57,337 nt of DNA, taken from NCBI GenBank assembly GCA_036169915.1, contig JAVHOF010000037.1, forward strand, positions 1-57,337. The letters are read 5' to 3'. This document shows, piece by piece, positions 5,642-40,813 of this stretch. The notes under the pieces were generated by a model. That model was not told where the DNA came from. It searched no databases and saw only the letters and a list, made by a program, of their open reading frames with translations. The stretch's first letter is position 1. Each line of letters opens with the position of its first letter. The DNA is from Candidatus Pacearchaeota archaeon. GTDB lineage: Archaea; Nanobdellota; Nanobdellia; Pacearchaeales; GW2011-AR1. The position numbers were made by a program, and so were the translations under genes.

Positions 5642-7882
5642 TCAATTTTCTTCTTTTACTCTTGTCTCAACAAATTTACCTGCATCTTTAAATAGGATTT
5701 CTTGATTAATTAATTTTCTTAAAATATCTCTTAAATCTGAGATTTTAACTTTGATTTGCTTTGTTGAATCTCTATCTCTTATTGTAACTTCTTTATTTTT
5801 AATACTATCTTCATCAATAGTTATACAATAAGGGGTTCCTATTTCATCATTTCTTGCATATCTCCTTCCAATACTTCCTGTTCTATCATAAAGTATTTTG
5901 AATTCTTTTCTTAAATCTTTGACAATTTTATCTGCAAGACTTTCATATTCTGGCTGTTTTACAATTGGAAAAACAGCTGCTTTTATTGGTGAGAGCTTTG
6001 GATTTAGTTTTAGAATAATATTATTTCTAATGGTATCATGGAAATAGGAATCAAACATGAAAACCAGGAAAGCCCTTTCAACTCCAAGACTTGGTTCGCA
6101 GACAACATGAGGGATAAATGTTTTTCCATTTTCATTTATTTCCATTTTTTCTCCTGAGAACTTTTGATGCTGAGATAAATCAAAATTTCCCCTATTTGCA
6201 AATCCCTGCAATTCTCTCCACCCCATTGGAAATTTATATTCCAAATCCCAGGTATCGATTGCATAGTGGCTTTTTTCATCTGAACAGTGCTGGCGTACAC
6301 GAAATTTCATTGGATTTGCTCCTAGGGAAATGAACCATTGGTATTCCTGAGCAATCCAGTATGCATGCCAGTCTGTTTTTATTATTTTATTCTCCCATGC
6401 ATTATAAATATTCATTAGTTCTGGTTCTTGGTTGTTCTTTTGCATTTCTTCGCTGTAAATCAATATTTCAGCATCTTTTATTTCATTCATGTATGAACAC
6501 GGCATTTCTGGAGAAATAAAATATTCAATTTCCATTTGTTCAAATTCCCTGCTTCTGAACAAGAATTCTCTTGGAGAAATTTCATTTCTGAAAGATTTTC
6601 CCACCTGAGATATTCCAAAAGGAAATTTCATTCTTGAGTTTTCCATAACAAGTTTGAAGTCTGCGAAAATCAACTGAGCTGTTTCAGGTCTTAGATAAGC
6701 TTTGATAGAATCTTCTTTTATTGGGCCTACTTGAGTTACGAACATTGGATTAAATTCTCCTTTATTTTCATATTCTCCTCCACATTTGTCGCATTTAACT
6801 TTTCCAAATTCATGTTTGTCAATTTTAGTCTTGTTTTTGCATTTTTTACAGATAACTGCCAAGTCAACAAAACTTGAAACATGCCCTGAAGCTTCCCATA
6901 CTTTTGGGTTTGTGATTATTGCTCCATCAATTCCAACCATGTCGTCTCTTTGATGAACATGAAATTTCCACCATTCTTTTTTAATATTATTTTTAAATTC
7001 ACTTCCTAAATGCCCAAAGTCCCAAAAACCTCCTAGTCCTCCATAGATTTCTCCGCTTGAATAAACAAAACCTTTTCTTTTGCAAAAATTAGCCAAATCT
7101 TCAATTGTTATGTTTGTGCTTTCTTGTCTCTCTTTTGATTCTTGGATTATTTCTTTTGCTTCTTCTAAATAATAATCCCAACTAGGTTGCCATTTTCCTT
7201 TTTTTCTCCAATCTTCTTTTATAGCTTGTTCCCAAGTTTTTTTATTTAATAAAACTTCGATGGCTAATTGTGGTGCTTTATGAGCAACAATTGCAATATT
7301 TTTTCCATTATACTCTTTGGATAAAAAATTTAGAAAATCTTTTATTCTTTTTTCAACATCTTTTAAACTTTCTCCATTAGGGAATGGATTATTAATATGA
7401 TTTTCATAATTAATTTTTTCCTCTTTAGCTTGATTTAAATTACCATAATCACATTCTCTTAATCTTTTATCTTGAATAATCTTATATTTTCCTTTAAAAC
7501 TTATTTCAGCAGAATCAATAGCTCTCTTTAAATCAGAGCAAAAAACAATATCATATTTTTCATTTTTAATCTGACTAGGGAGCTCTTGAGATTGTTTTAT
7601 TCCTAAATTGGATAATTCACCATCTGCTTGACCAGTAGAAATTCCTTTTTCATTATCTATAGTTGTTCCATGAACAAAATAGGTTATTTTAATTCCTTTT
7701 ATCTCTTCTAAATTTTCTTCGGATTTCATGCTTTTCATTATTTCTTCTGCTTTTTTTTCAGCTTCTTGTTTATTTTTTCCGAGATATGCAATGCACTCGC
7801 TTATTACTTTATCTGCTTTTCTTACACTTTTCTGCAAATAATAATAGTCTTTTCCTGCAACTTTCTTTTTAACAATGAACAT
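5642..7882 (-). CDS. glyS: Glycine--tRNA ligase (archaeal/eukaryotic alpha2 type) fused to an N-terminal histidine-phosphatase (PGM-family) domain
   Basis: The C-terminal 480 aa or so carry GlyRS motifs (GEIYGGLGGFWDFGHLG, LRPETAQ, FRNEISPR, EPSLGVERA, and an anticodon-binding domain). Residues 63-245 or so match the histidine phosphatase fold (FVHGTT.., SDLKRAIDSAE, ECDYGN, VAHKA). Confidence 0.9.
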   Translation of the reverse strand: MFIVKKKVAGKDYYYLQKSVRKADKVISECIAYLGKNKQEAEKKAEEIMKSMKSEENLEEIKGIKITYFVHGTTIDNEKGISTGQADGELSNLGIKQSQELPSQIKNEKYDIVFCSDLKRAIDSAEISFKGKYKIIQDKRLRECDYGNLNQAKEEKINYENHINNPFPNGESLKDVEKRIKDFLNFLSKEYNGKNIAIVAHKAPQLAIEVLLNKKTWEQAIKEDWRKKGKWQPSWDYYLEEAKEIIQESKERQESTNITIEDLANFCKRKGFVYSSGEIYGGLGGFWDFGHLGSEFKNNIKKEWWKFHVHQRDDMVGIDGAIITNPKVWEASGHVSSFVDLAVICKKCKNKTKIDKHEFGKVKCDKCGGEYENKGEFNPMFVTQVGPIKEDSIKAYLRPETAQLIFADFKLVMENSRMKFPFGISQVGKSFRNEISPREFLFRSREFEQMEIEYFISPEMPCSYMNEIKDAEILIYSEEMQKNNQEPELMNIYNAWENKIIKTDWHAYWIAQEYQWFISLGANPMKFRVRQHCSDEKSHYAIDTWDLEYKFPMGWRELQGFANRGNFDLSQHQKFSGEKMEINENGKTFIPHVVCEPSLGVERAFLVFMFDSYFHDTIRNNIILKLNPKLSPIKAAVFPIVKQPEYESLADKIVKDLRKEFKILYDRTGSIGRRYARNDEIGTPYCITIDEDSIKNKEVTIRDRDSTKQIKVKISDLRDILRKLINQEILFKDAGKFVETRVKEEN

Positions 7883-9633: not shown

Positions 9634-12600
9634 TTAACCTCTTGTTCCAATATCTTGGATATATCCTGTTCTTGGTTCATAGATATCTCCTTTTTCTTTT
9701 AGCTTTTCTAGAGCTTCTTCAAACTCACTTTCTGAAAAATCTTTTAATTCTTTTTTAAGGATATCAAGAGGAATTTGTTTGCCGTGTATTTCTTCAAGTT
9801 TTTTCAAGGTTTCTTTGAATAGTATTATTTTGCTTCTCTGGCTTGAGGAAACTCTTGAGGTAAATCTATCTATATCAAATTTTTTAGTTTCAGGATCATA
9901 TCCGACTTGCATTAGATAATAATTTGTTAATCTTATTGCAACTTGAGCATCTTCTTTTTCAGCTGTTGGAGACAATCTTGATTTTGCATGGGCTTCTGCT
10001 AATCTTACTAGTCCTTGAAGCTGTCTTGCTGAAATAGCAATAGAACCTGATTCTCCTGATGTTTGCATATTTCTCAATTTAATATAATAATCTTTAATTT
10101 CTTCAACTGCTTCATCTGTAAGCCTTGGTTCTGTTTTTTGTTTTGCATAAGCAACATATTTTTTAAACAATTCTCTGTCAATTGGTGATTTGACATCTTT
10201 TCTTTGATGCATATTCAAAACATGTGTTGCAATTGCATTATCTTGAAATTTATTTGGCAAGTCTCTAAGAACGAAAATTAAATCAAATCTGTTTAATAAT
10301 GTTGGAGGAAGGTCGATTTGTTGAGTAATTGGCTGTGTTGGTTCAAATCTTCCATATTTTGGATTTCCAGCAGCAAGAACAGATGTTTGAGCGACAAGTG
10401 ATGCCTGTACATTAGCTTTTGAAATTGTTACTGTCTGCTGTTCAAGAGCTTCATGCATTGCACTTCTGTCCTGTTCGTCCATTTTTTCTATTTCATCAAT
10501 GCAGACAACACCTTTGTTAGCAAGAACCATTGCTCCTGCTTCTAATGCCCATCCTTTTAGAAATTCATCTTTAACAACTGTTGCTGTTATTCCAGCACCT
10601 GTTGTTGCTTTTCCAACAATATATCTTCCACGCGGAGCAATATTTGAAATGAATTTTAGGGTCACAGAATTATGAACTCCTATCCCATTTGCAACAAATG
10701 TATTTGTTGAGGGTATGCTTAAATCATATACTTCTTCATTCTTTTTTTCTAGAGTCTTTATATCTTTTATTTTTGACCAAATAATATTGCTATTTGCTAT
10801 TTTTTTCAAAGTTTCTAATTCACTTATTTTTTCTTTTGCTTTGTTATCAAATTCTTTAATTAATCTTAATAATCTTAATCTTCCTATTTCTCCTCTTTTT
10901 TTAACAGTTCTCATTTCTGCTGCTAAAGTTCTGTTTCCATTAATTCTGGAATTATATCCTAATTTTTTTACTATTTCATAAACAAGATTTCCACATGGAA
11001 TTAGATTATTGTAACTATAGATTGGAGAATTTTTATTGAGTTTAATTTCTCTTCCCAAAATTTCAATATTTTTTGTGAAGGTTTCAATCATATAGGTAGG
11101 AACAGAAAGAGAATAATAGCTAGTTTTATTATTTTTATAAAAATATCCTCTTATTTTTATTTTATTTAATATTCCTATTGAGAATAATAAATCAGAACAA
11201 TCTTCTACTAATTCTTTTGAAACACTAATTAGTTCAAATCCTTTTAGCATTTTTTTATTTTTTATTAATCTTCCATCACCTGAAAATAATCCGGAGATTA
11301 TTCCATAAATAAATTCTTTTGGTGAAAAATAGGCAAATCCTGGTATTTTCTTTATTCTTGAATAATTTCCCTTTATTCCTTTTTTTATATTGTTTAAATC
11401 TTTTTTATCATAGCAAAAAGCCATTAAAATATCTGAAAGATTTTTTGAAAATATAGAAACACTTTTATTATTGATATTGTAATTTAAGTTTATTTTTTTT
11501 GAAAAATCAACTACTCTTTTTTGAATTTCTTTATTTTGATTTGATATTTCTATTGTTTTTTCATTTTTTATATAACCTTCGGCTAAAAAAATTCCTATAA
11601 AAAATCCAAAATCTTTTTCAAGTAATATGTTATTTGGTAGAAGCTTTGAACTATTGCTTTGTTTTTTATTAAAATGCCCTGGTATAAATACTTTGAAATT
11701 CTTTTTATGATAGTTTATTGGTATTGGAATGTAGGAACTTTTATTTAATTCTTCTCCTTTTATTGGAATTATATTCCCCTCTTTTGAGAGAGTAATAAAA
11801 GAATGATCTTTTGTTGCTATTATTGATTTTCCATGTTCTGTTGTAAGTTTGATTAAATCTTTTTCAGGAAGATGTTTTATTATTTCATTTACATTTTCCC
11901 ATCTTGGTTTATGGGTTGATTGATCAATTGTTAATACTTTTAAATCTTCTGGATTTTTTCCAAATTTTTTATAAAGAATTTCTATTGTGTCATAGCCTGA
12001 TTCTTTATTTGAAATATACATTATTTTTTCATCTTTTCCAATTGATTTTGCCACACCAGGATCACCTATTAAAAATAAATGAATATCTCCTCTCTGGACT
12101 GTACCATCTGGAGAAGTTTTTCTAACTCCCCCAAACATTTGCAGTACTAATGCTTCTTTAATTTCTTCATAACCCCAAATACTTGGTGCAATGCTATCTC
12201 TTAGTTTATTGAAAAGTTCAGGATCAGTTGAAAGCTCTAGTATTTGTGTTTCATCTTCATCTGTGATTTCCAAATCTTCATAGGTTGATTCTAAAGGTAT
12301 AAGGTTATTTACTTCAATAGCTAAATCAAATCTTGTTGATATTGAACCTGTTGGAAGTGGAACAGGAACTTCTTTTAAAATGCCTATTACTCTTACTTTA
12401 CTTCCAGGAGTTGTTTTTTCTTCCATTAATGGTTCGACTAAGTCTTCTTTTAGAAAAGCATTCATTCTTCTTGGCTGTTCTCCTCCACTTAAATTTTCTT
12501 GAGACTCTTCAATAACTATTCTTTGCGCATCAACCATAGTTTTGCTTATTAATCTAAACTGTCCTTTTCTTCCACAAGAACATCTTGTTGGTTCTCTGAA

Positions 12601-13035
12601 TTTTTTTTCTATCTGCAAAACAGAGATAACTGTTCCGCAAGAAGGGCATTCAAACCTTGCATTTACAACCTGAGGCCTTACTTCTGATGCTTGCCTGACT
12701 AAACCTTCAAAGAAAATTAATTGATTTAGATGAGTTGCCCTTATTGTTCTTATTTTTACTTTTTGTGTTTCAGGCAAATCATTAAATCTTATCCTTGGAT
12801 TTTTTATTATTCCTGTTTCTTCTAAAGCTGTTTCAAGTATCTGCAAAATTTCTTCAGGATTTCCTATCAAAGCTTCTGCTAAAACAGGAGAATTTGAAGC
12901 TAAATCACCAAAATTAACAAAAACAACTTTTTTTCCTCTTCTTACACTTTCTCCTATTTCTTTTTTATAGGTTTCAAAAAAGAGCTTAGCTTCAGAGACA
13001 AGCTCTTCATTATTCTTTTTTTTATCAATCACCAT
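9634..13035 (-). CDS. mcm: MCM replicative helicase, interrupted by an intein in the Walker A P-loop
   Basis: The Zn finger is CPSCG...CSCG. The Walker A motif GDPGVAKS is split from VTLKFISNIAPRG. Also present are Walker B DEIEKMD, the Arg finger NRFDLIF, and a C-terminal winged helix. Confidence 0.95.
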   Translation of the reverse strand: MVIDKKKNNEELVSEAKLFFETYKKEIGESVRRGKKVVFVNFGDLASNSPVLAEALIGNPEEILQILETALEETGIIKNPRIRFNDLPETQKVKIRTIRATHLNQLIFFEGLVRQASEVRPQVVNARFECPSCGTVISVLQIEKKFREPTRCSCGRKGQFRLISKTMVDAQRIVIEESQENLSGGEQPRRMNAFLKEDLVEPLMEEKTTPGSKVRVIGILKEVPVPLPTGSISTRFDLAIEVNNLIPLESTYEDLEITDEDETQILELSTDPELFNKLRDSIAPSIWGYEEIKEALVLQMFGGVRKTSPDGTVQRGDIHLFLIGDPGVAKSIGKDEKIMYISNKESGYDTIEILYKKFGKNPEDLKVLTIDQSTHKPRWENVNEIIKHLPEKDLIKLTTEHGKSIIATKDHSFITLSKEGNIIPIKGEELNKSSYIPIPINYHKKNFKVFIPGHFNKKQSNSSKLLPNNILLEKDFGFFIGIFLAEGYIKNEKTIEISNQNKEIQKRVVDFSKKINLNYNINNKSVSIFSKNLSDILMAFCYDKKDLNNIKKGIKGNYSRIKKIPGFAYFSPKEFIYGIISGLFSGDGRLIKNKKMLKGFELISVSKELVEDCSDLLFSIGILNKIKIRGYFYKNNKTSYYSLSVPTYMIETFTKNIEILGREIKLNKNSPIYSYNNLIPCGNLVYEIVKKLGYNSRINGNRTLAAEMRTVKKRGEIGRLRLLRLIKEFDNKAKEKISELETLKKIANSNIIWSKIKDIKTLEKKNEEVYDLSIPSTNTFVANGIGVHNSVTLKFISNIAPRGRYIVGKATTGAGITATVVKDEFLKGWALEAGAMVLANKGVVCIDEIEKMDEQDRSAMHEALEQQTVTISKANVQASLVAQTSVLAAGNPKYGRFEPTQPITQQIDLPPTLLNRFDLIFVLRDLPNKFQDNAIATHVLNMHQRKDVKSPIDRELFKKYVAYAKQKTEPRLTDEAVEEIKDYYIKLRNMQTSGESGSIAISARQLQGLVRLAEAHAKSRLSPTAEKEDAQVAIRLTNYYLMQVGYDPETKKFDIDRFTSRVSSSQRSKIILFKETLKKLEEIHGKQIPLDILKKELKDFSESEFEEALEKLKEKGDIYEPRTGYIQDIGTRG
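10669..12045 (-). mobile_element. Intein of 459 aa with a LAGLIDADG homing endonuclease, inserted in the MCM P-loop
   Basis: The intein runs from S331 (SIGKDEKIMY, block A-like) to VHN789, followed by a +1 Ser. Block B is TKDH. The two LAGLIDADG motifs are GFFIGIFLAEGYI and IYGIISGLFSGDGRL. Joining the exteins restores GDPGVAKS-VTLKF. Confidence 0.85.
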
Positions 13036-29572: not shown

Positions 29573-30499
29573 TTATGAAATAAATCTAAATTCTTCCAAA
29601 ATATCCAATACAGTATAAATATTTTCTTTGACTAAATCACATATTTCAATTTCTCTTTTTGACATCTTTGATTTATTTATCTTTTCATATATTTTTTTTA
29701 TGAATTCTCTGATTTCATCTATTTTTTTTACAAACGAACCATCAAACTCTTTATATAGATTTGAATGAAATAATTTAAGTATTTCAAAAGATTCTTTCAA
29801 AAATCTGATTGTTATTGCATTAAAAGTGAATGTTTTTTTATCTGAACCAATTTCTGTAATCTCTTCAGCTACCATCTTACACCTATCTCCTATAAGTTCT
29901 AATTGCATAGCTAAAAAATATAATAGCTCTTTTTTCATTTTTTTATTAACTACATTTTTGTTTATCAATCTGATTATATAGTCTATAAATTTATTTATTT
30001 GCTTGTCAGTTAGAATTATTTCTTTCAGCCTTTCAGATTCCAAAGGCTTGGTATCATCTTGAAGCTCTTCGCACATTGACATCATCAATATGATAACCCT
30101 TTTTATCAGCTTATCAATATCTTCAGTTTGTGATTTTGCAATATCTTCAATAATGCATTCGTTTTTTGATTGTTCTACTATTTCAAATCCAATCAAATCC
30201 TTTATTGTTTCTTCAATTATATTTAATTGATTAATATTCTTGAATTTTAAGGCTAATCTGTCATAGCCTTTTCTGTATAATGCACGCAGATGGCGGTATA
30301 ATGTTGATGGAGAATAGTCATTTATATCCAAACTTAAACTTTTATAATCTTGTTTTATTGGCTCTCCTATTATTAATCTATTTTCTTCTTCAGTCACATC
30401 TATCTCATCGCCTTTCTTTATTCCCTGTTGCTTTACCCATTTTGAAGGAAGACTGATTACAAGAGTCTGGTTTGCCAACTGAATTGCTTTTCTTTTCAT
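29573..30499 (-). CDS. AbrB-domain / PhoU-like regulator (archaeal phosphate-uptake-regulator type)
   Basis: The N-terminus LANQTLVISLPSKWVKQQGIKKGDEIDV is an AbrB/SpoVT domain. The remainder consists of two helical PhoU-like repeats. Confidence 0.6.
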   Translation of the reverse strand: MKRKAIQLANQTLVISLPSKWVKQQGIKKGDEIDVTEEENRLIIGEPIKQDYKSLSLDINDYSPSTLYRHLRALYRKGYDRLALKFKNINQLNIIEETIKDLIGFEIVEQSKNECIIEDIAKSQTEDIDKLIKRVIILMMSMCEELQDDTKPLESERLKEIILTDKQINKFIDYIIRLINKNVVNKKMKKELLYFLAMQLELIGDRCKMVAEEITEIGSDKKTFTFNAITIRFLKESFEILKLFHSNLYKEFDGSFVKKIDEIREFIKKIYEKINKSKMSKREIEICDLVKENIYTVLDILEEFRFIS

Positions 30500-30608: not shown

Positions 30609-31058
30609 ATGAAAAAAACAAAAAACAAAAAAATTTTGATTTTTTTTATTGGGATATTCTTTTTATTTATATTTTTATCTTTTGTTTCTGCTGATGAAAT
30701 ACAGGCTCCAAAGGGAAATGAAATAGTACCTCTTGTTAGGGGAGATAATCTAGGAGTATTAATGTCTCCAGATACAACCTATACTCTTTATTATATTGCT
30801 GATGGAAAATCTGCAACAATACAATATAGCGAATCTTTTGCATCTTACTTTTTTGGAAAAAGGAATAATGAGAAATCTCTTATTGCAATGAGTATTTATT
30901 ATGCACCTTGGTTTGATCAAAAATATACTCTTGTTAAAAATACTGGAATAGATCTTTTTACTCAAAAAACAAGCCTTCTGCAAACTAAAGGTGTTTACAA
31001 GTTTGAATTTAAATGTTATGGGCACAATTGGGCTGCTGTTAATTTTAAAGTATATTAA
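30609..31058 (+). CDS. Secreted hypothetical protein
   Basis: A signal or anchor peptide is present: KKILIFFIGIFFLFIFLSFVSA-DE. Confidence 0.5.
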   Translation: MKKTKNKKILIFFIGIFFLFIFLSFVSADEIQAPKGNEIVPLVRGDNLGVLMSPDTTYTLYYIADGKSATIQYSESFASYFFGKRNNEKSLIAMSIYYAPWFDQKYTLVKNTGIDLFTQKTSLLQTKGVYKFEFKCYGHNWAAVNFKVY

Positions 31059-31070
31059 ATCTAGGAGTTA

Positions 31071-31493
31071 ATGAAAATGATACGAGCATTAGTTGTTGAG
31101 GATCATGATAAATGGCAAAAATTTCATAAAAATTATCTTGAATCTATTTTAGGGAAAGATAATATAGATATCACTGATAACTATGAATGTGCTATTTCTA
31201 TGTTAGGTCAAGAGTATGGGTTATATATTATAGATGGACAATTCTTTAGAACTCCTGATGGTGAGCTTCAGTTACTCGGAATCCAATTAGCCGAAGATGT
31301 TAGAAATAAAGAGGGTGGTTATGATAAAATTGTAATAGTAAGCAGTAGTGATGATACTTTATTTAAAGCGCAACTTTTAGGAGTATTTAATGTCTATAAT
31401 AAATCTTATTTAAATAACAATGAAAAAGAAGTTTTGAAATTTAAAAGTTGTGTTAAAACTATTTTATGCGGAGTTAATGATGATAGCAGATGA
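31071..31493 (+). CDS. Stand-alone response-regulator receiver (CheY-like) domain protein
   Basis: The acidic pair is in ALVVEDHD, the acceptor-like Asp is in LYIIDGQF, the Ser/Thr position is in IVIVSSS, and the Lys position is in VYNKS. Confidence 0.55.
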   Translation: MKMIRALVVEDHDKWQKFHKNYLESILGKDNIDITDNYECAISMLGQEYGLYIIDGQFFRTPDGELQLLGIQLAEDVRNKEGGYDKIVIVSSSDDTLFKAQLLGVFNVYNKSYLNNNEKEVLKFKSCVKTILCGVNDDSR

Positions 31494-32592
31494 AACTTTT
31501 GAAGTAGCTAAAGATAAGTATTTAGATATCCCTGATTTAGAATTGCATTTTTATAATATGAAATGCAGTGGGATAAGTGATCCTGTGATGGAATCAGGTG
31601 GAGATAGGCCTATTTTTTATCTTTTTGATGATAAAAATTTTGGATTAATTTCTTTTATGCTTTCTGAAAGTTCTCCTTATCAAGTAGATGAAAATAGAAT
31701 ATTGTTTAATAATTGTGAATTGAGTTTTGAAAGTATTCTTTTTACTCGTTTAGGAAATACTTTACCCTATTATTATTTTAGGGGACCTCAGGGAATGTTT
31801 CCAAGCCTGTATGATGAAAGAATTCTTAATGTAAATTTTAATCCTCAATGTGGTGGTTGTGATTTTTGTTTTTATGGATATAGAAGTAAACAATTAGAAA
31901 ATATTCTTTCTGAACATGGTTTCTTGAGAATTGAAACGGAAACAGGATTAAAAGAATTTAGTTCTTTAGCCGAGATAGCTATCGTTACTGGAAGATTTGA
32001 ATCTGAAGACAAGCTAAAAAAGCATGTTCTTGATGTAATTGATAGTGCCGAAGGAAGAGGGTTTAATGGAAGAATTTTTTATATAGGGTCTCAATTAGTA
32101 ACTCCTGTTAGAATAGAAGAAATCTTGAAAAGATTAGGGAATAATCCTGATAGGTTTAAATATGCCTACACTATTGAAAGATTTTTTGATAGAAGTTCTA
32201 TCATGCATGGATCTAAAGGAAAGAAAACTTACTCTGAGATATTATCTGATTTGGGAGTAATTAGGAGTTTAGGAATAGATAAATTAGAATATACTTATAT
32301 TGTAGGTATAGAAGATTTGGATGGATTTAAAAAAGGTGCAGATGGATTAGTCCATATCGCTACTCCTCATATTTCTATTTTAAGGAAGACTGGCCATGGA
32401 GCAAATTCTTTGATAAGGTCTAATGATTACATTGAACATGGGCTTGATTATCTTTGTCAGATAAGAAAATATTATGAACATCTATATAAGGGTAAGATTA
32501 TAGGAAATAATTTTGCTAATTTATGGCTGTTCTCTCTTAGTGATTTTAATTTTTCATCTTATTTAAATCGTTTATCTTCAGTTCGAAATTGA
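31477..32592 (+). CDS. Putative Fe-S enzyme, radical-SAM-like TIM barrel with a non-canonical CX2CX2C motif
   Basis: NFNPQCGGCDFCFYGY is followed by an alternating beta/alpha pattern (IAIVTG, IFYIGSQ, YTYIVGIED). The ATG at 31477 overlaps the end of the REC gene. Confidence 0.35.
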   Translation: MMIADETFEVAKDKYLDIPDLELHFYNMKCSGISDPVMESGGDRPIFYLFDDKNFGLISFMLSESSPYQVDENRILFNNCELSFESILFTRLGNTLPYYYFRGPQGMFPSLYDERILNVNFNPQCGGCDFCFYGYRSKQLENILSEHGFLRIETETGLKEFSSLAEIAIVTGRFESEDKLKKHVLDVIDSAEGRGFNGRIFYIGSQLVTPVRIEEILKRLGNNPDRFKYAYTIERFFDRSSIMHGSKGKKTYSEILSDLGVIRSLGIDKLEYTYIVGIEDLDGFKKGADGLVHIATPHISILRKTGHGANSLIRSNDYIEHGLDYLCQIRKYYEHLYKGKIIGNNFANLWLFSLSDFNFSSYLNRLSSVRN

Positions 32593-32666
32593 AAAAGACA
32601 TTAAAAAGGATATGAAAAATGAAAATTCAAAATTTAATTGAGTGTAAGGAGGTAAATAAAAAACAA

Positions 32667-34760
32667 ATGAAAAATAAAAATTTATTTTTAATTTTGGGAA
32701 TTGTTTTAGTTTTAATTTTGTCTGGATTTGTAAGTGCGCTTGCAATAGGTGACAAGGTGGAAGTGTATAATACTGGAAACAGTGGATTGCTTGTTCTTAG
32801 CCCTAATGCTTGCAGTTCTTCAATTGGAGTTAAATTTAATGGAGCAAGGGGGACTATTACAGCTGGTCCTATTTATTGCAGCTCTTATAATCGCTGGAAA
32901 GTTACATGGGATGGAGGTCCTACTGGATGGAGTGCTGAAAATTGGTTGAGAAAAGTTGTTACTTGCACCAATCAATGTTCATCTGGACAAATAAGATGCA
33001 ATGGATATTACAAACAAAGCTGTATTTCCAGCAATGGATGTTGGATATGGGGTGGAGATACTTATTGCAGTAATGGATGTGCTTATGGACAATGCCTTGG
33101 TGGTTGCACTCCAAAAACATGTTCTCAACTTGGAAAACAATGTGGAGCATGGGATAATGGTTGTCAGCAATCAATAGATTGTGGAACTTGTTCTTCTGGT
33201 AAAACTTGTTCAAATGGACAATGTGTAAGTGGAGGAAGTTTGCCTACTTCTATAATCTCGCCTGTTGATGGTAATCTTGAGATTGTCAATACTTTAGGCG
33301 CTTGTTCAAATACAAAATGGTGTTTTAATCAACATAAAACAGGAGGGCATGTGCCAGGTGGAGGAATATGTAAGGCAGATGATACTTATGCTTGGGATGC
33401 TAATCTTAATTTTCCTAGTCAAGATTCTGATAAAGGTAAACCTGTTTATTCAGTTGCTTCTGGAGTTGTCACAAGTCTCTATGGAGGATGTACAAATGCC
33501 GGAGGGTCTTATGGGCAAGTATTAATTGAACATAATTATAATGGAAATAAATGGTGGAGTGGATATTTACATATGGGAAATATTCAAGTGAAAACTGGAC
33601 AGAGTGTAAACGAAAATACAATTTTAGGGTATGTGTCAAATACAGGAGTATCTGATGGTAATAATCATTTACATTTTGTAGTCTATAAAGGTTCTAACAC
33701 TAATGGAGGGTTAGTATCATTTAATTTAAACATAAATCCTAGAAATAATGGTTGTACTCCTCAATGTTCTGGAAAACAATGTGGAAGTGATGGATGTGGT
33801 GGAAGTTGTGGCAGTTGTTCTAATGGAAAAACATGCAATTCAAATGGACAATGCGTTACTTCATGTACTCCAAAAACATGTTCTCAACTTGGAAAACAAT
33901 GTGGGGGATGGGATGATGGATGTCAAAAATCAATAAATTGTGGCAGTTGCTCTAATGGAAAAACATGCAATTCAAATGGACAGTGTGTAAGTGGTTGTAC
34001 AAATCAATGTACTTATAAAACCAATAGATGCAATGGACAAAATTCAGAATATTGTACAGATTATAATGGTGATGGATGTTCTGAATGGATTGTACAAAGA
34101 GTTTGTGATTATGGGTGTAACAATAATAATGGTTTTTGTTATATGTGTACTCCTAATTCAAAATATTGTTATGGAAATTGGATTATGAAATGTAGTTCTG
34201 ATGGTTCTAGCGCGAGTGGAGATACTTATTGTAGCAAGGGATGTAATAATGGGGCTTGTATTAATAGTTGTACTCCAAATTGGAATTGTGGAGCTTGGTC
34301 AACATGTTCGAATAATCAACAAACAAGAACATGTACAGACTCTAATAATTGTGGAACAAATAATGGGAAACCTGCTACTTCGCAAAGTTGCAGTGCTTCT
34401 GGAAATAACCATAATTCAGATTGTACATTTATAACAAACATTCAACCAGCAGGATCAACATGGGTAATAGAAGATTATCTGAATTCTCCGGATGGAAAGA
34501 AATGGTTAGCAATGGATATAACTGGTGATGGAATTAAAGAAATATTTGGTTATATGAGTGGTTCAAGTACTGATTCATGCCCACCAGATAATATTTATTG
34601 GCACACATCACCAATTTCTGCATTAGGAGGTTTTATGCTAAAATATTATTATTCTTCAAACAATATTGAAAAGCAATTATTTGTTTGTGATAATAATAGA
34701 TTTGCAGCATACTCTTCGACCCGTAATATACCAACAAACCCTGACATTAGTTGCCCATAA
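32667..34760 (+). CDS. Secreted Cys-rich multidomain protein with an M23 (LytM-type) peptidase-like domain
   Basis: GGAGG lies about 13 nt upstream of the ATG at 32667. A signal peptide is followed by an SH3b-like N-terminal domain. The M23-like core is [11 protein letters not shown]...YGQVLIEH...WWSGYLHM...[17 protein letters not shown]. Repeated Cys-rich modules ([35 protein letters not shown]) are also present. Confidence 0.8.
33105..33992 (+). repeat. Repeated Cys-rich module coding units inside the M23-like gene
   Basis: Near-identical DNA (..ACTCCAAAAACATGTTCTCAACTTGGAAAACAATGTGG..) starts at 33105 and at 33864. A shorter related module lies at about 33753-33863. Confidence 0.8.
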
Positions 34761-34870
34761 ATTAATTTTTCTTTTTCTTTTTCTTCTTTTTTTCATTCTA
34801 CTTCAGTAATTACAATTTAAATATATTTTATATCAACAATCTTTAAATAATCTGATTGTTATTTTAGTAC

Positions 34871-35374
34871 ATGAAAAGAGGCTCAAAGAAAATAAAAAAG
34901 AGTGAGAAAAGTGAAGATGGAATTCTAAGTTATGAAATTATAGATAATACTCAGAATATGACTGATAGCAGCAATAGTTTTGATAATAGTTCTTTTGAAA
35001 AACCAAAAGAATCTATGGAAAGTCCTAATAAGCCTTTTAATGAAACTCAATTGGTAATGGAGCAAAAACCTAATAATGAAAAGAAAAGTCCTGTTAAAAC
35101 TCTTGTTATTCTGATAATACTTATTTTATTGGTTGATGCTATTTTTCTTTTTGCATATTTAAAACCTGATTTAAAAACAACATTATCTAATTTTTTTAAA
35201 CCTAGGGTTGTTGATAATCCAAGTTCATTAAAATGCAATGATGGAACTCCTTATAATTCATGCGCAAAAAATAAACCTTATTATTGTTATAATGGAGAGC
35301 TTTTGAAAAGCGCATATAATTGTGGGTGCCCTGAAGGATATAAAGTAGCTTTCCAAGATTGCAAGAAGATTTAA
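34871..35374 (+). CDS. Membrane-anchored protein with a C-terminal Cys-rich domain
   Basis: The central TM helix is LVILIILILLVDAIFLFAYL. The C-terminus is CNDGTPYNSCAKNKPYYCYNGELL..CGCPEGY...C. Confidence 0.5.
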   Translation: MKRGSKKIKKSEKSEDGILSYEIIDNTQNMTDSSNSFDNSSFEKPKESMESPNKPFNETQLVMEQKPNNEKKSPVKTLVILIILILLVDAIFLFAYLKPDLKTTLSNFFKPRVVDNPSSLKCNDGTPYNSCAKNKPYYCYNGELLKSAYNCGCPEGYKVAFQDCKKI

Positions 35375-35850: not shown

Positions 35851-36453
35851 ATGAAACTGAAACTTGGAGAATGTTTAAGAAAACCTAATGATGATTATTA
35901 CAATTATGCTCTTAGGAATGCAAGAATTGAGGCAAGGTATAGTGAAGAACAATTAGCTGTGGAACTTGGAGTTTGCAGAACTATGATTTCACATTATGAA
36001 AGATTAAGAACTCTTCCAGCTCCTGCAATTGTTAAGAAATTGTCAAAGGTTTTGCATAGAAAGGTAAGAGAACTTTTTCCAAAAGAAATGAGAGCATATG
36101 CAAGAGCAGGACGAGTTAAACAAAATAATGGTAAAGAAGATGCACTAGATTATGCACAACCTCTACCGAAAAATATTGAATCATTAGAAGATGCTGGACA
36201 AGAATATTCTGATATTTATTCTATGCTGGATATACATGATAATATTAAAAAGGTACTTAAGGGATTAAGTTATAGACAAAGAGAAGTGATTAAGTTAAGA
36301 TATGGTTTAGGTGATGGATATTCTTATACTTTGGAAGAAGTTGGATATATATTTAATGTATCAATGGAGAGAATAAGACAGATAGAAGCCAAAGCAGTGA
36401 AAAAATTGCAAATGCCAGAAGTAGCTGCCAATTTAGTAGGATTTTTAGATTAA
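35851..36453 (+). CDS. XRE-type HTH fused to a bacterial sigma-70 region 4 domain
   Basis: The N-terminus YSEEQLAVELGVCRTMISHYERL is an XRE HTH. The C-terminus LSYRQREVIKLRYGLGDGYSYTLEEVGYIFNVSMERIRQIEAKAVKKLQ...LVGFLD aligns almost position for position with RpoD region 4.2 as I recall it (L..RE..VL..RFG......TLEEVG..F.VTRERIRQIEAKALRKL....L..FLD). Confidence 0.8.
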   Translation: MKLKLGECLRKPNDDYYNYALRNARIEARYSEEQLAVELGVCRTMISHYERLRTLPAPAIVKKLSKVLHRKVRELFPKEMRAYARAGRVKQNNGKEDALDYAQPLPKNIESLEDAGQEYSDIYSMLDIHDNIKKVLKGLSYRQREVIKLRYGLGDGYSYTLEEVGYIFNVSMERIRQIEAKAVKKLQMPEVAANLVGFLD

Positions 36454-40033: not shown

Positions 40034-40813
40034 ATGAAACGTGAAATATATAATTTAGGAGATGAGGAATTTGCTTTTTTTATAAATAGAATTGCAGAAG
40101 AACTTAGATATAGAGATATTCCTTATGCTTTTGTAGGCGGTGTTGCTGTTCAATCTCAGATTTTAAAAAGGCTTACTAAAAAATATAATGCAGATATATC
40201 TCATCTTATATTAAATAGTGATGTAAGATTTCAAGATTATGTAAGAGCTACTGATGATGTAGACCTTGCTTTGAAGTTTCCAACAGATGAAAAAGGTAAT
40301 GTTAGTCCTGAAAATCTTGAAAAAATCATAGATGTCTGTGAGCATATAGAAGGCGTTTATTTGTCAGGAGATCATAAACATCTTTTTGAATATCTATTGC
40401 AAAGAAATGGAATAAGAAGACCTGTTTTTAGTGTTTCTATTGATGACAATCAACAGGAAAATTTATTTCTGAATATATCTAGAGAATCTAGAAATTTAAG
40501 AAGGATAAGCTATCAATTTTATGAAGAATTCATAGATGCTGGAGAAGATTTAACAATTCCTTATAGCTCTTCTTTTAGTTTACGAATTAAAACTTATAGG
40601 CCTGAACATATTTTAGCTACAAAAATATCTCAATTAAGAGCAAAAGATATGATGGATATAAAAAATCTTGTTGAAATTATGCAGCAATGTGGAGAGGAAG
40701 TAGATGCTAAGGAACTTGAAAGGATTTTAATACCTTGTCATTTAATAAATTATGAAAGATTTGGGTCTCTAACAGGAATATCTGTTGATGTTGATTTAAA
40801 TGGACATTCTTAA
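40034..40813 (+). CDS. Nucleotidyltransferase-fold protein (AbiEii-like)
   Basis: The sequence is YAFVGGVAVQSQ....VRATDDVDLAL, which fits the GG...R.T.D.D pattern. Confidence 0.4.
   Translation: MKREIYNLGDEEFAFFINRIAEELRYRDIPYAFVGGVAVQSQILKRLTKKYNADISHLILNSDVRFQDYVRATDDVDLALKFPTDEKGNVSPENLEKIIDVCEHIEGVYLSGDHKHLFEYLLQRNGIRRPVFSVSIDDNQQENLFLNISRESRNLRRISYQFYEEFIDAGEDLTIPYSSSFSLRIKTYRPEHILATKISQLRAKDMMDIKNLVEIMQQCGEEVDAKELERILIPCHLINYERFGSLTGISVDVDLNGHS

Follow-up and report, generated by a model that had tools for sequence, protein, structure and literature searches.

Departures from the canonical CX3CX2C cluster motif of radical SAM (S-adenosylmethionine) enzymes are well established, with ThiC carrying CX2CX4C and HmdB CX5CX2C. 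In the archaea, peptidoglycan hydrolases that kill bacteria have been described, and M23 homologues were found in four Nanoarchaeia genomes (PMC12352652, 2025). Here we consider a locus in which both kinds of protein lie side by side: a row of five plus-strand genes (genes 1 to 5) in a 57,337-nt stretch of DNA from a Candidatus Pacearchaeota archaeon (GenBank assembly GCA_036169915.1, contig JAVHOF010000037.1; the whole stretch is called the window below), in which a receiver (REC)-like protein (gene 2) and a divergent radical SAM enzyme (gene 3) are encoded between a small beta-sandwich protein (gene 1) and a secreted Cys-rich M23 endopeptidase (gene 4), with a Cys-rich membrane protein (gene 5) at the edge. 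A first reading of the DNA letters (hereafter the original prediction) took the row for a candidate single module in which, on one reading, a dedicated maturation enzyme serves a secreted effector. We think it likely that two conserved pairs, independent of each other, make up the row as a mosaic in the chromosome of a DPANN (Nanoarchaeota-type) archaeon, with pair B (genes 2 and 3) nested in pair A (genes 1 and 4), and this assessment takes in the roles proposed below as well as the arrangement itself.

The evidence lies in the company that each gene keeps elsewhere. The radical SAM gene was followed through 16 other distinct contexts (L001, L002, L004, L007, L008, L009, L011, L012, L013, L014, L016, L020, L021, L022, L027 and L028), and in none of the 16 does an M23 or Cys-rich gene adjoin it, although co-occurrence with such neighbors is what the original prediction had proposed to look for. 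What does recur is the receiver, which precedes the radical SAM gene in seven other contexts and in several of them overlaps or abuts it. In L001, L007/L019, L012, L014 and L002/L003/L017 the gene directly 5' of radical SAM encodes an orthologue of the receiver; there the radical SAM proteins are 81 to 49% identical to that of the window and the receivers 75 to 49%; diverged REC-like open reading frames (ORFs) are found upstream in L008 and L016. The coupling of receiver and enzyme, which had been anticipated, is a genuine, conserved pairing.

Homologues of gene 1 (54 to 77% identical) stand directly 5' of gene-4-like genes in L023/L024, L025, L026, L031 and L032, so that gene 1 and a Cys-rich/M23 gene adjoin with nothing between them in five of six other contexts, and only in L033 is gene 1 without a partner. 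Because the gene-4-like protein of L025 has the Cys-rich and C-terminal parts and no M23 domain (a gene 5 homologue, 48% identical with E 2e-22, comes next), the stable partnership is that of gene 1 with the Cys-rich scaffold. Each pair is also found without the other in relatives that share the surrounding genes: in L023, whose synteny with the window runs from GatE past GatD (71% identical) as far as the next GatB-like gene, gene 1 is followed directly by M23 and then by GatD, and both REC and the radical SAM gene are missing; L001, syntenic on the GatE (74% identical) and AbrB-PhoU side, has REC and radical SAM ahead of other genes and lacks both gene 1 and M23. Further, the DNA 5' of gene 4 in the window, including the Shine-Dalgarno sequence AAGGAGGT, aligns with the spacer between genes 1 and 4 of L032, so that the 1.5-kb block of the REC and radical SAM genes is located within that spacer. 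The two pairs occur together only in the window organism. By the refuting condition that the original prediction had itself set, the single five-gene module therefore fails: the row as a whole recurs in none of the other contexts collected, and only its sub-pairs keep their synteny in other genomes (in seven and five other contexts, respectively).

In light of this, it appears very improbable that a receiver-controlled radical SAM enzyme modifies the Cys-rich M23 protein before export, by thioether or other cross-links, and that all five genes form one system. Such a system would suit genes that are contiguous on one strand with no obvious terminator from gene 1 to gene 4, as well as the presence of SuiB and of the sactipeptide thioether-forming radical SAM enzyme 5why among the Foldseek matches of gene 3 (ranks 7 and 29). 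It sits badly, however, both with the 16 radical SAM contexts and with the five contigs in which the gene 1-gene 4 pair stands alone, and the proteins themselves speak against it: the alignment of gene 3 with 20 homologues holds no auxiliary-cluster (SPASM- or twitch-like) cysteines, which disfavors peptide cross-linking of the SPASM type, and the N-terminal domain of gene 3 runs from helices to strands, unlike the recognition element of enzymes acting on ribosomally synthesized and post-translationally modified peptides (RiPPs). In addition, the partners of this radical SAM family are kinases and phosphatases, and Cys-rich repeats of the gene 4 type are widespread without such an enzyme, occurring in Myxococcales and in other extracellular proteins.

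The five genes follow each other as foreseen, with a gap of 12 nt, an overlap of 17 nt and gaps of 74 and 110 nt (Table 1). These spacings presuppose ATG 31477 as the start of gene 3 and Met17 (32667) as the start of gene 4, which we prefer because both have ribosome-binding sites (RBS): an 11-mer, GGAGTTAATGA, is present in identical copies at the REC start and at the gene 3 start, and the RBS of gene 4 favors 32667 over the upstream ATG 32619, from which the protein would have 713 aa (residues of gene 4 domains are numbered here in that 713-aa frame). The overlap of 17 nt given in the original prediction is therefore upheld and the enzyme length of 380 aa is not, since 380 aa would need a start at GTG 31450, with a 44-nt overlap with gene 2; the homologues support 370-371 aa. 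Flanking direct or inverted repeats were considered as scars of the REC-radical SAM insertion and set aside, being short AT-rich chance matches only, apart from the shared 11-mer.

An assembly chimera can be excluded, since the order of gene 1, REC, radical SAM and the start of gene 4 is matched in at least nine independent Logan assemblies from other sequencing runs. The window has a G+C content of 26-34% and is a piece of archaeal chromosome, encoding an MCM with an intein, an ATP-dependent DNA ligase, GatD/GatE, FtsZ and AspRS; the labels on close homologues are Nanoarchaeota or Woesearchaeota. Among five independent assemblies of the window organism (L034-L038), four of the contigs shown break 440-520 bp into gene 4, ahead of the second Cys-rich repeat block, and the fifth (L034) is clipped by the requested flank. 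The repeats of gene 4 probably fragment short-read assemblies, and for that reason Cys-rich surface proteins of this type may be under-represented in metagenome gene catalogues.

Table 1. Features of the five-gene row, in window positions, with the evidence for each.
Feature	Positions	Strand	Evidence or remark
Gene 1, 149-aa exported or membrane-anchored protein	30609..31058	+	AlphaFold2 model, Foldseek, synteny
GGAGTTAATGA, RBS and REC start codon	31064..31074	+	Second copy at 31470-31480, at the radical SAM start
Gene 2, 140-aa predicted single-domain CheY-like receiver (REC)	31071..31493	+	Sub-threshold Pfam match, profile, conserved residues
Gene 3, 371-aa predicted divergent radical SAM enzyme	31477..32592	+	AlphaFold2 model, Foldseek, homologue alignment
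Gene 3 N-terminal domain, about 110 aa	31477..31806	+	Three helices, then beta-sheet (AlphaFold2)
Predicted CX2CX2C cluster motif, C125-G-G-C128-D-F-C131	31849..31869	+	Alignment of homologues
AAGGAGGT, RBS of gene 4	32646-32653	+	Precedes ATG 32667
Gene 4, 697-aa predicted secreted modular M23 peptidoglycan endopeptidase	32667..34760	+	Pfam, homologues, RBS
Gene 4 SH3b-like N-terminal domain, residues 42-114	32742..32960	+	BLASTP to P0176
Gene 4 first Cys-rich repeat block, residues 116-205	32964..33233	+	Sequence
Gene 4 M23 domain, Pfam residues 271-359, conserved region about 214-366	33258..33716	+	Pfam
Gene 4 second Cys-rich repeat block, residues 378-601	33750..34421	+	Sequence
Gene 4 C-terminal domain, residues 602-713	34422..34757	+	Conserved in L023, L025 and L026
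T-rich tract, likely archaeal oligo-T terminator	34761..34797	+	Directly 3' of the gene 4 stop
Gene 5, 167-aa protein, single transmembrane helix, six-Cys domain at the C-terminus	34871..35374	+	Sequence

For gene 3, the original prediction had pointed to the Cys triad CGGCDFC and had asked whether structure prediction would reveal a radical SAM or other TIM barrel, and both suggestions proved sound. The AlphaFold2 model is confident (predicted local distance difference test, pLDDT, 88.8; predicted template modeling score, pTM, 0.88) and has a core of the (beta/alpha) TIM-barrel type, as in the radical SAM superfamily (PF04055); all 18 Foldseek matches in the PDB at E <= 0.001 are radical SAM enzymes, with LipA, BioB, NosL, SuiB, LAM (lysine 2,3-aminomutase), HydG and BlsE at the top (E 2e-5 to 1e-3). 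Identity to any solved structure is 9-17%, and the template modeling (TM) scores are about 0.4, in part because residues 1-110 add a helix-then-sheet domain that is confined to the family. This domain is present in the distant relatives too, has K29, G32, R44, P45 and S66-P67-Y68 (an SPY motif) invariant in the 20 homologues, and has no Pfam match as an isolated fragment (E up to 10).

The triad occupies residues 125-131, and C125, C128, F130 and C131 are invariant in the same 20 homologues; the only further near-invariant Cys is C327. Its CX2CX2C spacing is one residue short of the canonical motif, and Phe130 is the aromatic residue that the radical SAM criterion expects ahead of the last motif Cys. 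In a profile search of PDB sequences, CGGCDFC aligns, with a one-residue gap, to the CX3CX2C motif in a radical SAM protein of solved structure (E 0.1). Since some distant relatives of gene 3 have CX3CX2C and others CX2CX2C, the short spacing is best read as the loss of a loop residue in what is a true radical SAM family. Profile databases see little of this family: gene 3 has no Pfam, NCBIfam or significant PDB-sequence match of its own and does not reach the threshold of the superfamily profile, four of the 20 homologues have weak PF04055 matches (best E 1.5e-5), most of the fused distant relatives match PF04055 weakly (17-35 bits against a cut-off of 29.5), and for the window genes together with ten relatives the only NCBIfam matches were generic radical SAM ones below threshold. 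An exhaustive profile search collected 209 representative relatives, and the literature on CX2CX2C radical SAM enzymes, on radical SAM with GrpB or histidine phosphatase, and on radical SAM with a receiver or in DPANN archaea yielded no description of the gene 3 family. By its modeled fold and aligned motif, gene 3 is a predicted radical SAM enzyme with an assigned cluster motif.

The CheY-like receiver of the original prediction is also supported, if less squarely. The match of gene 2 to Pfam Response_reg (PF00072) is weak (E 0.003; 18.2 bits against a cut-off of 30.2, with 23.2 bits for the L002 orthologue), and the residues D55, S91 and K110 are in place. A profile of seven orthologues matches the solved receiver domain 5lwk (E 8.7e-4). 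D55, S91, W15 and Q57 are invariant (7/7 sequences), the acidic pair E10-D11 and K110 are kept in the five closer orthologues of the seven, and in the REC-like proteins of L008 and L016 this pair has degenerated to EN or DN. That no kinase lies nearby was correct as well, as no HisKA/HATPase_c histidine kinase is found among the window ORFs scanned. Two other assignments of gene 2 were rejected: a flavodoxin or B12-binding domain, from the sequence (no phosphate loop of the flavin mononucleotide type and no DxHxxG motif), and a HAD-like DxD at D11-H-D13, in which D13 is not conserved.

The other neighbors of the radical SAM family bear on its chemistry. In more distant relatives, namely the L004-type loci and L009, the histidine phosphatase His_Phos_1 is encoded upstream in the receiver's place and an overlapping AAA_33/KTI12-like P-loop kinase downstream; in L008 and L016 the REC-like ORF is upstream, and on the downstream side come a kinase and a methyltransferase of class I, which in L016 are fused. 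An AP_endonuc_2 barrel follows the radical SAM gene in L002, a HAD hydrolase in L027 and, where the receiver is missing, GrpB in L013; GrpB is fused at the N-terminus of the radical SAM relatives P0039 and P0102, and other fused relatives carry a major facilitator superfamily (MFS) transporter, HD plus methyltransferase, URO-D or HATPase_c. These kinase, phosphatase, methyltransferase, GrpB and HAD neighbors point to a phosphorylated small molecule or nucleotide, and not a protein, as the class of substrate. Tentatively, and with considerable doubt, we suggest that REC and the radical SAM enzyme with its CX2CX2C motif act as a dedicated two-protein system in which phospho-Asp gates catalysis or turns over a phosphorylated metabolite or nucleotide and, as part of the same suggestion, that they belong to a new radical SAM subfamily of DPANN archaea and candidate phyla radiation (CPR) bacteria in which REC, His_Phos_1 and HAD are interchangeable phospho-handling partners.

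The same neighbors raise another possibility, namely that the REC-like protein is a stand-in for a phosphatase and not a switch, and transfers or removes a phosphoryl group on the radical SAM substrate or product via Asp55; we regard this as unlikely. It would match the role of His_Phos_1 or HAD in other branches of the family, as His_Phos_1 in L004 and L009 is directly upstream of the radical SAM gene, where REC stands elsewhere, and the HAD hydrolase of L027 is directly downstream. Receivers can phosphorylate themselves with small phosphodonors and can also catalyze their own dephosphorylation, and no histidine kinase is found among the window ORFs scanned; a kinase may nonetheless exist in the genome beyond the 57-kb window. 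Against this reading, the Asn that replaces the second acidic residue in the L008 and L016 proteins would weaken Mg2+ binding.

A defense role was also considered, in which the REC-radical SAM pair (plus the kinase of its relatives) would be a mobile, viperin-like nucleotide-modifying cassette that landed here by chance. In PADLOC, weak matches link the associated P-loop kinases to VakA (E 2e-5 to 1.5e-4) and one distant relative to pVip (E 0.004); the best PDB-sequence profile match (E 0.1) is a CX3CX2C entry, named "Radical SAM core domain-containing protein," whose motif we take to be viperin-like, a reading of our own that does not come from the entry name. The pair also lies in a variable region, and a 68%-identical radical SAM copy is present on a CPR-bacterium-like contig. 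These supporting matches are all under any curated threshold, however, and the PADLOC defense models give no match for genes 1-5, genes 2 and 3 among them; no viperin structure is found in the top 50 Foldseek matches, and there is no adjacent kinase in the window, all of which makes the cassette improbable.

The 68%-identical copy (L013, contig Ga0156069_109, 59-226 and 1681-3320) deserves a comment of its own. Its contig also encodes an ORF that we read as a bacterial-type ribosomal protein L33, and the protein of this copy (P0007) is labelled Candidatus Daviesbacteria in NCBI, which suggests either that the gene has passed between DPANN archaea and CPR bacteria or that the contig is mis-binned. 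At the other end of the family, the most distant full-length relatives (L020, L021 and L022, 37-38% identical) have a conserved 209-274-aa protein after the radical SAM gene, without ORF-level similarity to anything else collected, followed by a larger protein with a second CxxxCxxC motif that by eye reads as a B12-binding-type radical SAM enzyme.

Turning to pair A, gene 4 was rightly predicted to encode an exported Cys-rich endopeptidase of the peptidoglycan type, with fewer cysteines than the approximately 90 first given: we count 62 in 697 aa (8.9%). The protein runs from a signal peptide, by which it is predicted to be exported, through an SH3b-like domain, a Cys-rich block, the M23 domain and a second Cys-rich block to a C-terminal domain. 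The M23 match is above the Pfam threshold (E 2.7e-14; 53.5 bits against a cut-off of 28.7), and TagE, ShyA, zoocin A, lysostaphin and LasA are among the PDB sequences that the domain matches. H239, H244, D255, D260, H305, H318, H350 and H352 are kept in at least 86 of 93 homologous domains, and the zinc ligand/catalytic set is thus present (H244 or H239, D260, H318, H350 and H352; 86-93 of the 93), with an H-to-D spacing that exceeds HxxxD. The domain is a mobile module: in many bacteria and in Methanoperedens, M23 domains 60-70% identical to it are fused with TPR, HEAT, LRR, PKD, NlpC/P60, dockerin and further extracellular modules. The SH3b-like domain aligns with residues 388-463 of P0176 (33% identity, E 1e-7) and with its residues 252-279 (E 0.001), the latter inside the Pfam SH3_3 match of P0176 (220-276). 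As isolated fragments, the SH3b-like domain, the Cys repeats and the C-terminal domain have no Pfam match (E up to 10), and the BLAST alignments of the gene-4-like proteins of L023, L025 and L026 extend to residue 713.

Gene 1 belongs to a family of 16 proteins only and has no Pfam match. Its AlphaFold2 model (pLDDT 85.4) has a hydrophobic N-terminal helix (residues 3-24) followed by an all-beta sandwich of about 120 aa, for which Foldseek finds collagen-binding/PPC domains, the claudin-binding domain of the Clostridium perfringens enterotoxin (C-CPE) and YPM (E 3e-4 to 1e-3, TM 0.4-0.5). PliG lysozyme inhibitors are also among the fold matches (ranks 35 and 37), and gene 1 is directly upstream of the hydrolase, so that one might think of an inhibitor or immunity-type partner in place of a binding or anchoring subunit. 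We give this little credence: the archaeon has no murein to protect, gene 1 of L025 is paired with a Cys-rich protein that lacks M23, and the better fold matches are binding modules (collagen-binding domains and C-CPE).

Gene 5 has six cysteines, all within the C-terminal 50 or so residues, and this Cys domain has no Pfam match as an isolated fragment (E up to 10). Because a T-rich tract comes directly after the gene 4 stop codon and a TATA-like element, TTTAAATATA, lies between that tract and gene 5, gene 5 is probably transcribed separately, if the tract acts as the terminator it resembles. Besides the homologue in L025, one is found in L001 (49% identity), after a protein of about 187 aa that follows the radical SAM gene in the closest relatives (L001 5115-5678, L007 2312-2935 and L015 800-1423). 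This 187-aa protein has a Gly/Ser-rich N-terminal half, a conserved CCYVTTACL...LPRDSLE motif and a helical C-terminal part, with no Pfam match; it holds the place of the M23 gene of the window, and a fragment of it is also present near the gene 1 homologue in L033. A candidate gene 5 homologue 3' of the L014 radical SAM gene was discarded (E 2.4, not significant; the ORF is cut by the contig end).

From these observations, a working model of the two pairs can be put forward. Pair A, with gene 5 at its edge, would be cell-surface equipment. Gene 4 would leave the cell through its Sec-type signal peptide, its disulfide-rich repeats and SH3b-like domain serving as scaffold and binding parts, and its zinc M23 domain would cut the peptide cross-links of bacterial peptidoglycan, a predicted role that fits the published archaeal peptidoglycan hydrolases used against bacteria (PMC12352652). 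Gene 1, either co-exported or anchored in the membrane, would be a binding module of the beta-sandwich type and would act together with the Cys-rich scaffold. Pair B, on the other hand, would be cytoplasmic: gene 3 would bind one site-differentiated [4Fe-4S] cluster via C125, C128 and C131, cleave SAM to give a 5'-deoxyadenosyl radical and act on a small phosphorylated metabolite or nucleotide, which its N-terminal domain would probably hold, and the translationally coupled REC would be its dedicated partner, either gating activity via phospho-Asp55 or handling a phosphoryl group. Inserted into the gene 1-gene 4 spacer in the window genome, pair B is probably co-transcribed with pair A and would have no functional tie to it. 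Of all this, the analysis shows the folds, the motifs, the pattern of synteny and the site of the insertion; the substrates, the parts played by REC and gene 1, and the layout of transcripts are inference.

A number of points weigh against this model. No oligo-T tract or clear promoter is found between gene 1 and gene 4, so that genes 1-4 may share a transcript and a local, lineage-specific link between the pairs is possible. In close relatives, moreover, surface genes recur near pair B, since a small secreted SH3b-like protein, a relative of the gene 4 N-terminus, is encoded upstream of REC in L007/L019, and the gene-5-like gene of L001 is two genes downstream of the radical SAM gene. On the side of pair B, the REC match is under the Pfam cut-off, no histidine kinase is found among the window ORFs scanned, the radical SAM gene of L013 does without a receiver, the gene 3 protein of the window scores no Pfam radical SAM match, and its CX2CX2C spacing is a predicted cluster-binding motif. 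As for the SH3b-like protein of these relatives (L007 441-809 and L019 8-376), it is free-standing, with 106 aa, is 35% identical to the SH3b-like domain of gene 4 and is encoded directly 5' of the receiver gene, as a second surface-protein gene beside REC-radical SAM among close relatives.

Elsewhere in the window, the AbrB/MazE-PhoU-like regulator at 29573-30499 (-) is divergent from gene 1 and keeps its position in L001 and L007. A 746-aa protein at 5642-7882 (-) is an unusual fusion in which an N-terminal His_Phos_1 domain (residues 71-205, E 4e-28) is joined to the core of a class II aminoacyl-tRNA synthetase and to an anticodon-binding domain of the HGTP type, and is the sole His_Phos_1 homologue found in the window. 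An intein that carries a LAGLIDADG homing endonuclease domain splits the MCM helicase gene (9634-13035, -), and a homologue of AbiEii-type nucleotidyltransferase toxins is encoded at 40034-40813 (+). Although the genome is archaeal, a 200-aa protein at 35851-36453 (+) joins an XRE-type HTH_3 domain to a bacterial Sigma-70 region 4 domain (E 4e-16).

These results remove a tempting reading of the row as a maturation system for a secreted effector, and what is left to follow up is a conserved, translationally coupled receiver-radical SAM pair, whose enzyme combines a shortened cluster motif with an N-terminal domain private to its family. The pair occurs in organisms with very small genomes, in which the genes that are retained tend to matter, and the kinase and phosphatase partners offer a concrete starting point in the search for the radical SAM substrate. 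In turn, a DPANN M23 hydrolase on a Cys-rich scaffold, with a small partner, adds to the evidence of archaea attacking or feeding on bacterial walls.

Set against the systems that are already known, the REC-radical SAM pair is an undescribed variant of known protein kinds. Gene 2 is like the single-domain CheY-like regulators in its size of about 130 aa and the register of acidic pair, Asp, Ser and Lys, with a match to the receiver profile that stays under the Pfam cut-off; unlike them, it is translationally coupled to an enzyme gene and not to kinase or chemotaxis genes, its invariant Trp15 and Gln57 are atypical, and its distant members have a degenerate acidic pair. Gene 3 shares with the radical SAM superfamily a TIM-barrel-type core, a three-Cys loop after strand 1, and TG..E after strand 2 and VGIE after strand 5, both of which resemble SAM-binding motifs, but it differs from LipA, BioB, NosL, HydG, LAM and BlsE in its CX2CX2C, its extra N-terminal domain of about 110 aa and its lack of an auxiliary cluster. 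ThiC and HmdB likewise show that radical SAM chemistry tolerates altered Cys spacing, although theirs is another spacing in families unrelated to gene 3, whose own family has both CX3CX2C and CX2CX2C.

The proteins of pair A can be placed in the same way. Gene 1 has the beta-sandwich fold of the clostridial collagenase PPC-type domains and of C-CPE, but at 9-13% identity and TM 0.4-0.5, and it is free-standing with its own N-terminal helix. Gene 4 is of a kind already published, M23 hydrolases being known in Nanoarchaeia, and is a further member of the archaeal M23 hydrolases (PMC12352652); with those homologues and with lysostaphin, zoocin A, LytM and LasA it has in common a predicted secreted M23 domain, the HxH, the catalytic His, the Asp ligand and an accessory SH3b-like module. 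It departs from the known M23 hydrolases in lacking a PG_binding_1 or zoocin target-recognition domain, in having its M23 domain set between two Cys-rich blocks (62 Cys) with an extra C-terminal domain, and in having a dedicated small beta-sandwich partner gene, and the long spacing from its first His to the Asp (H244...D260) brings it nearer to LasA than to the HxxxD of lysostaphin.

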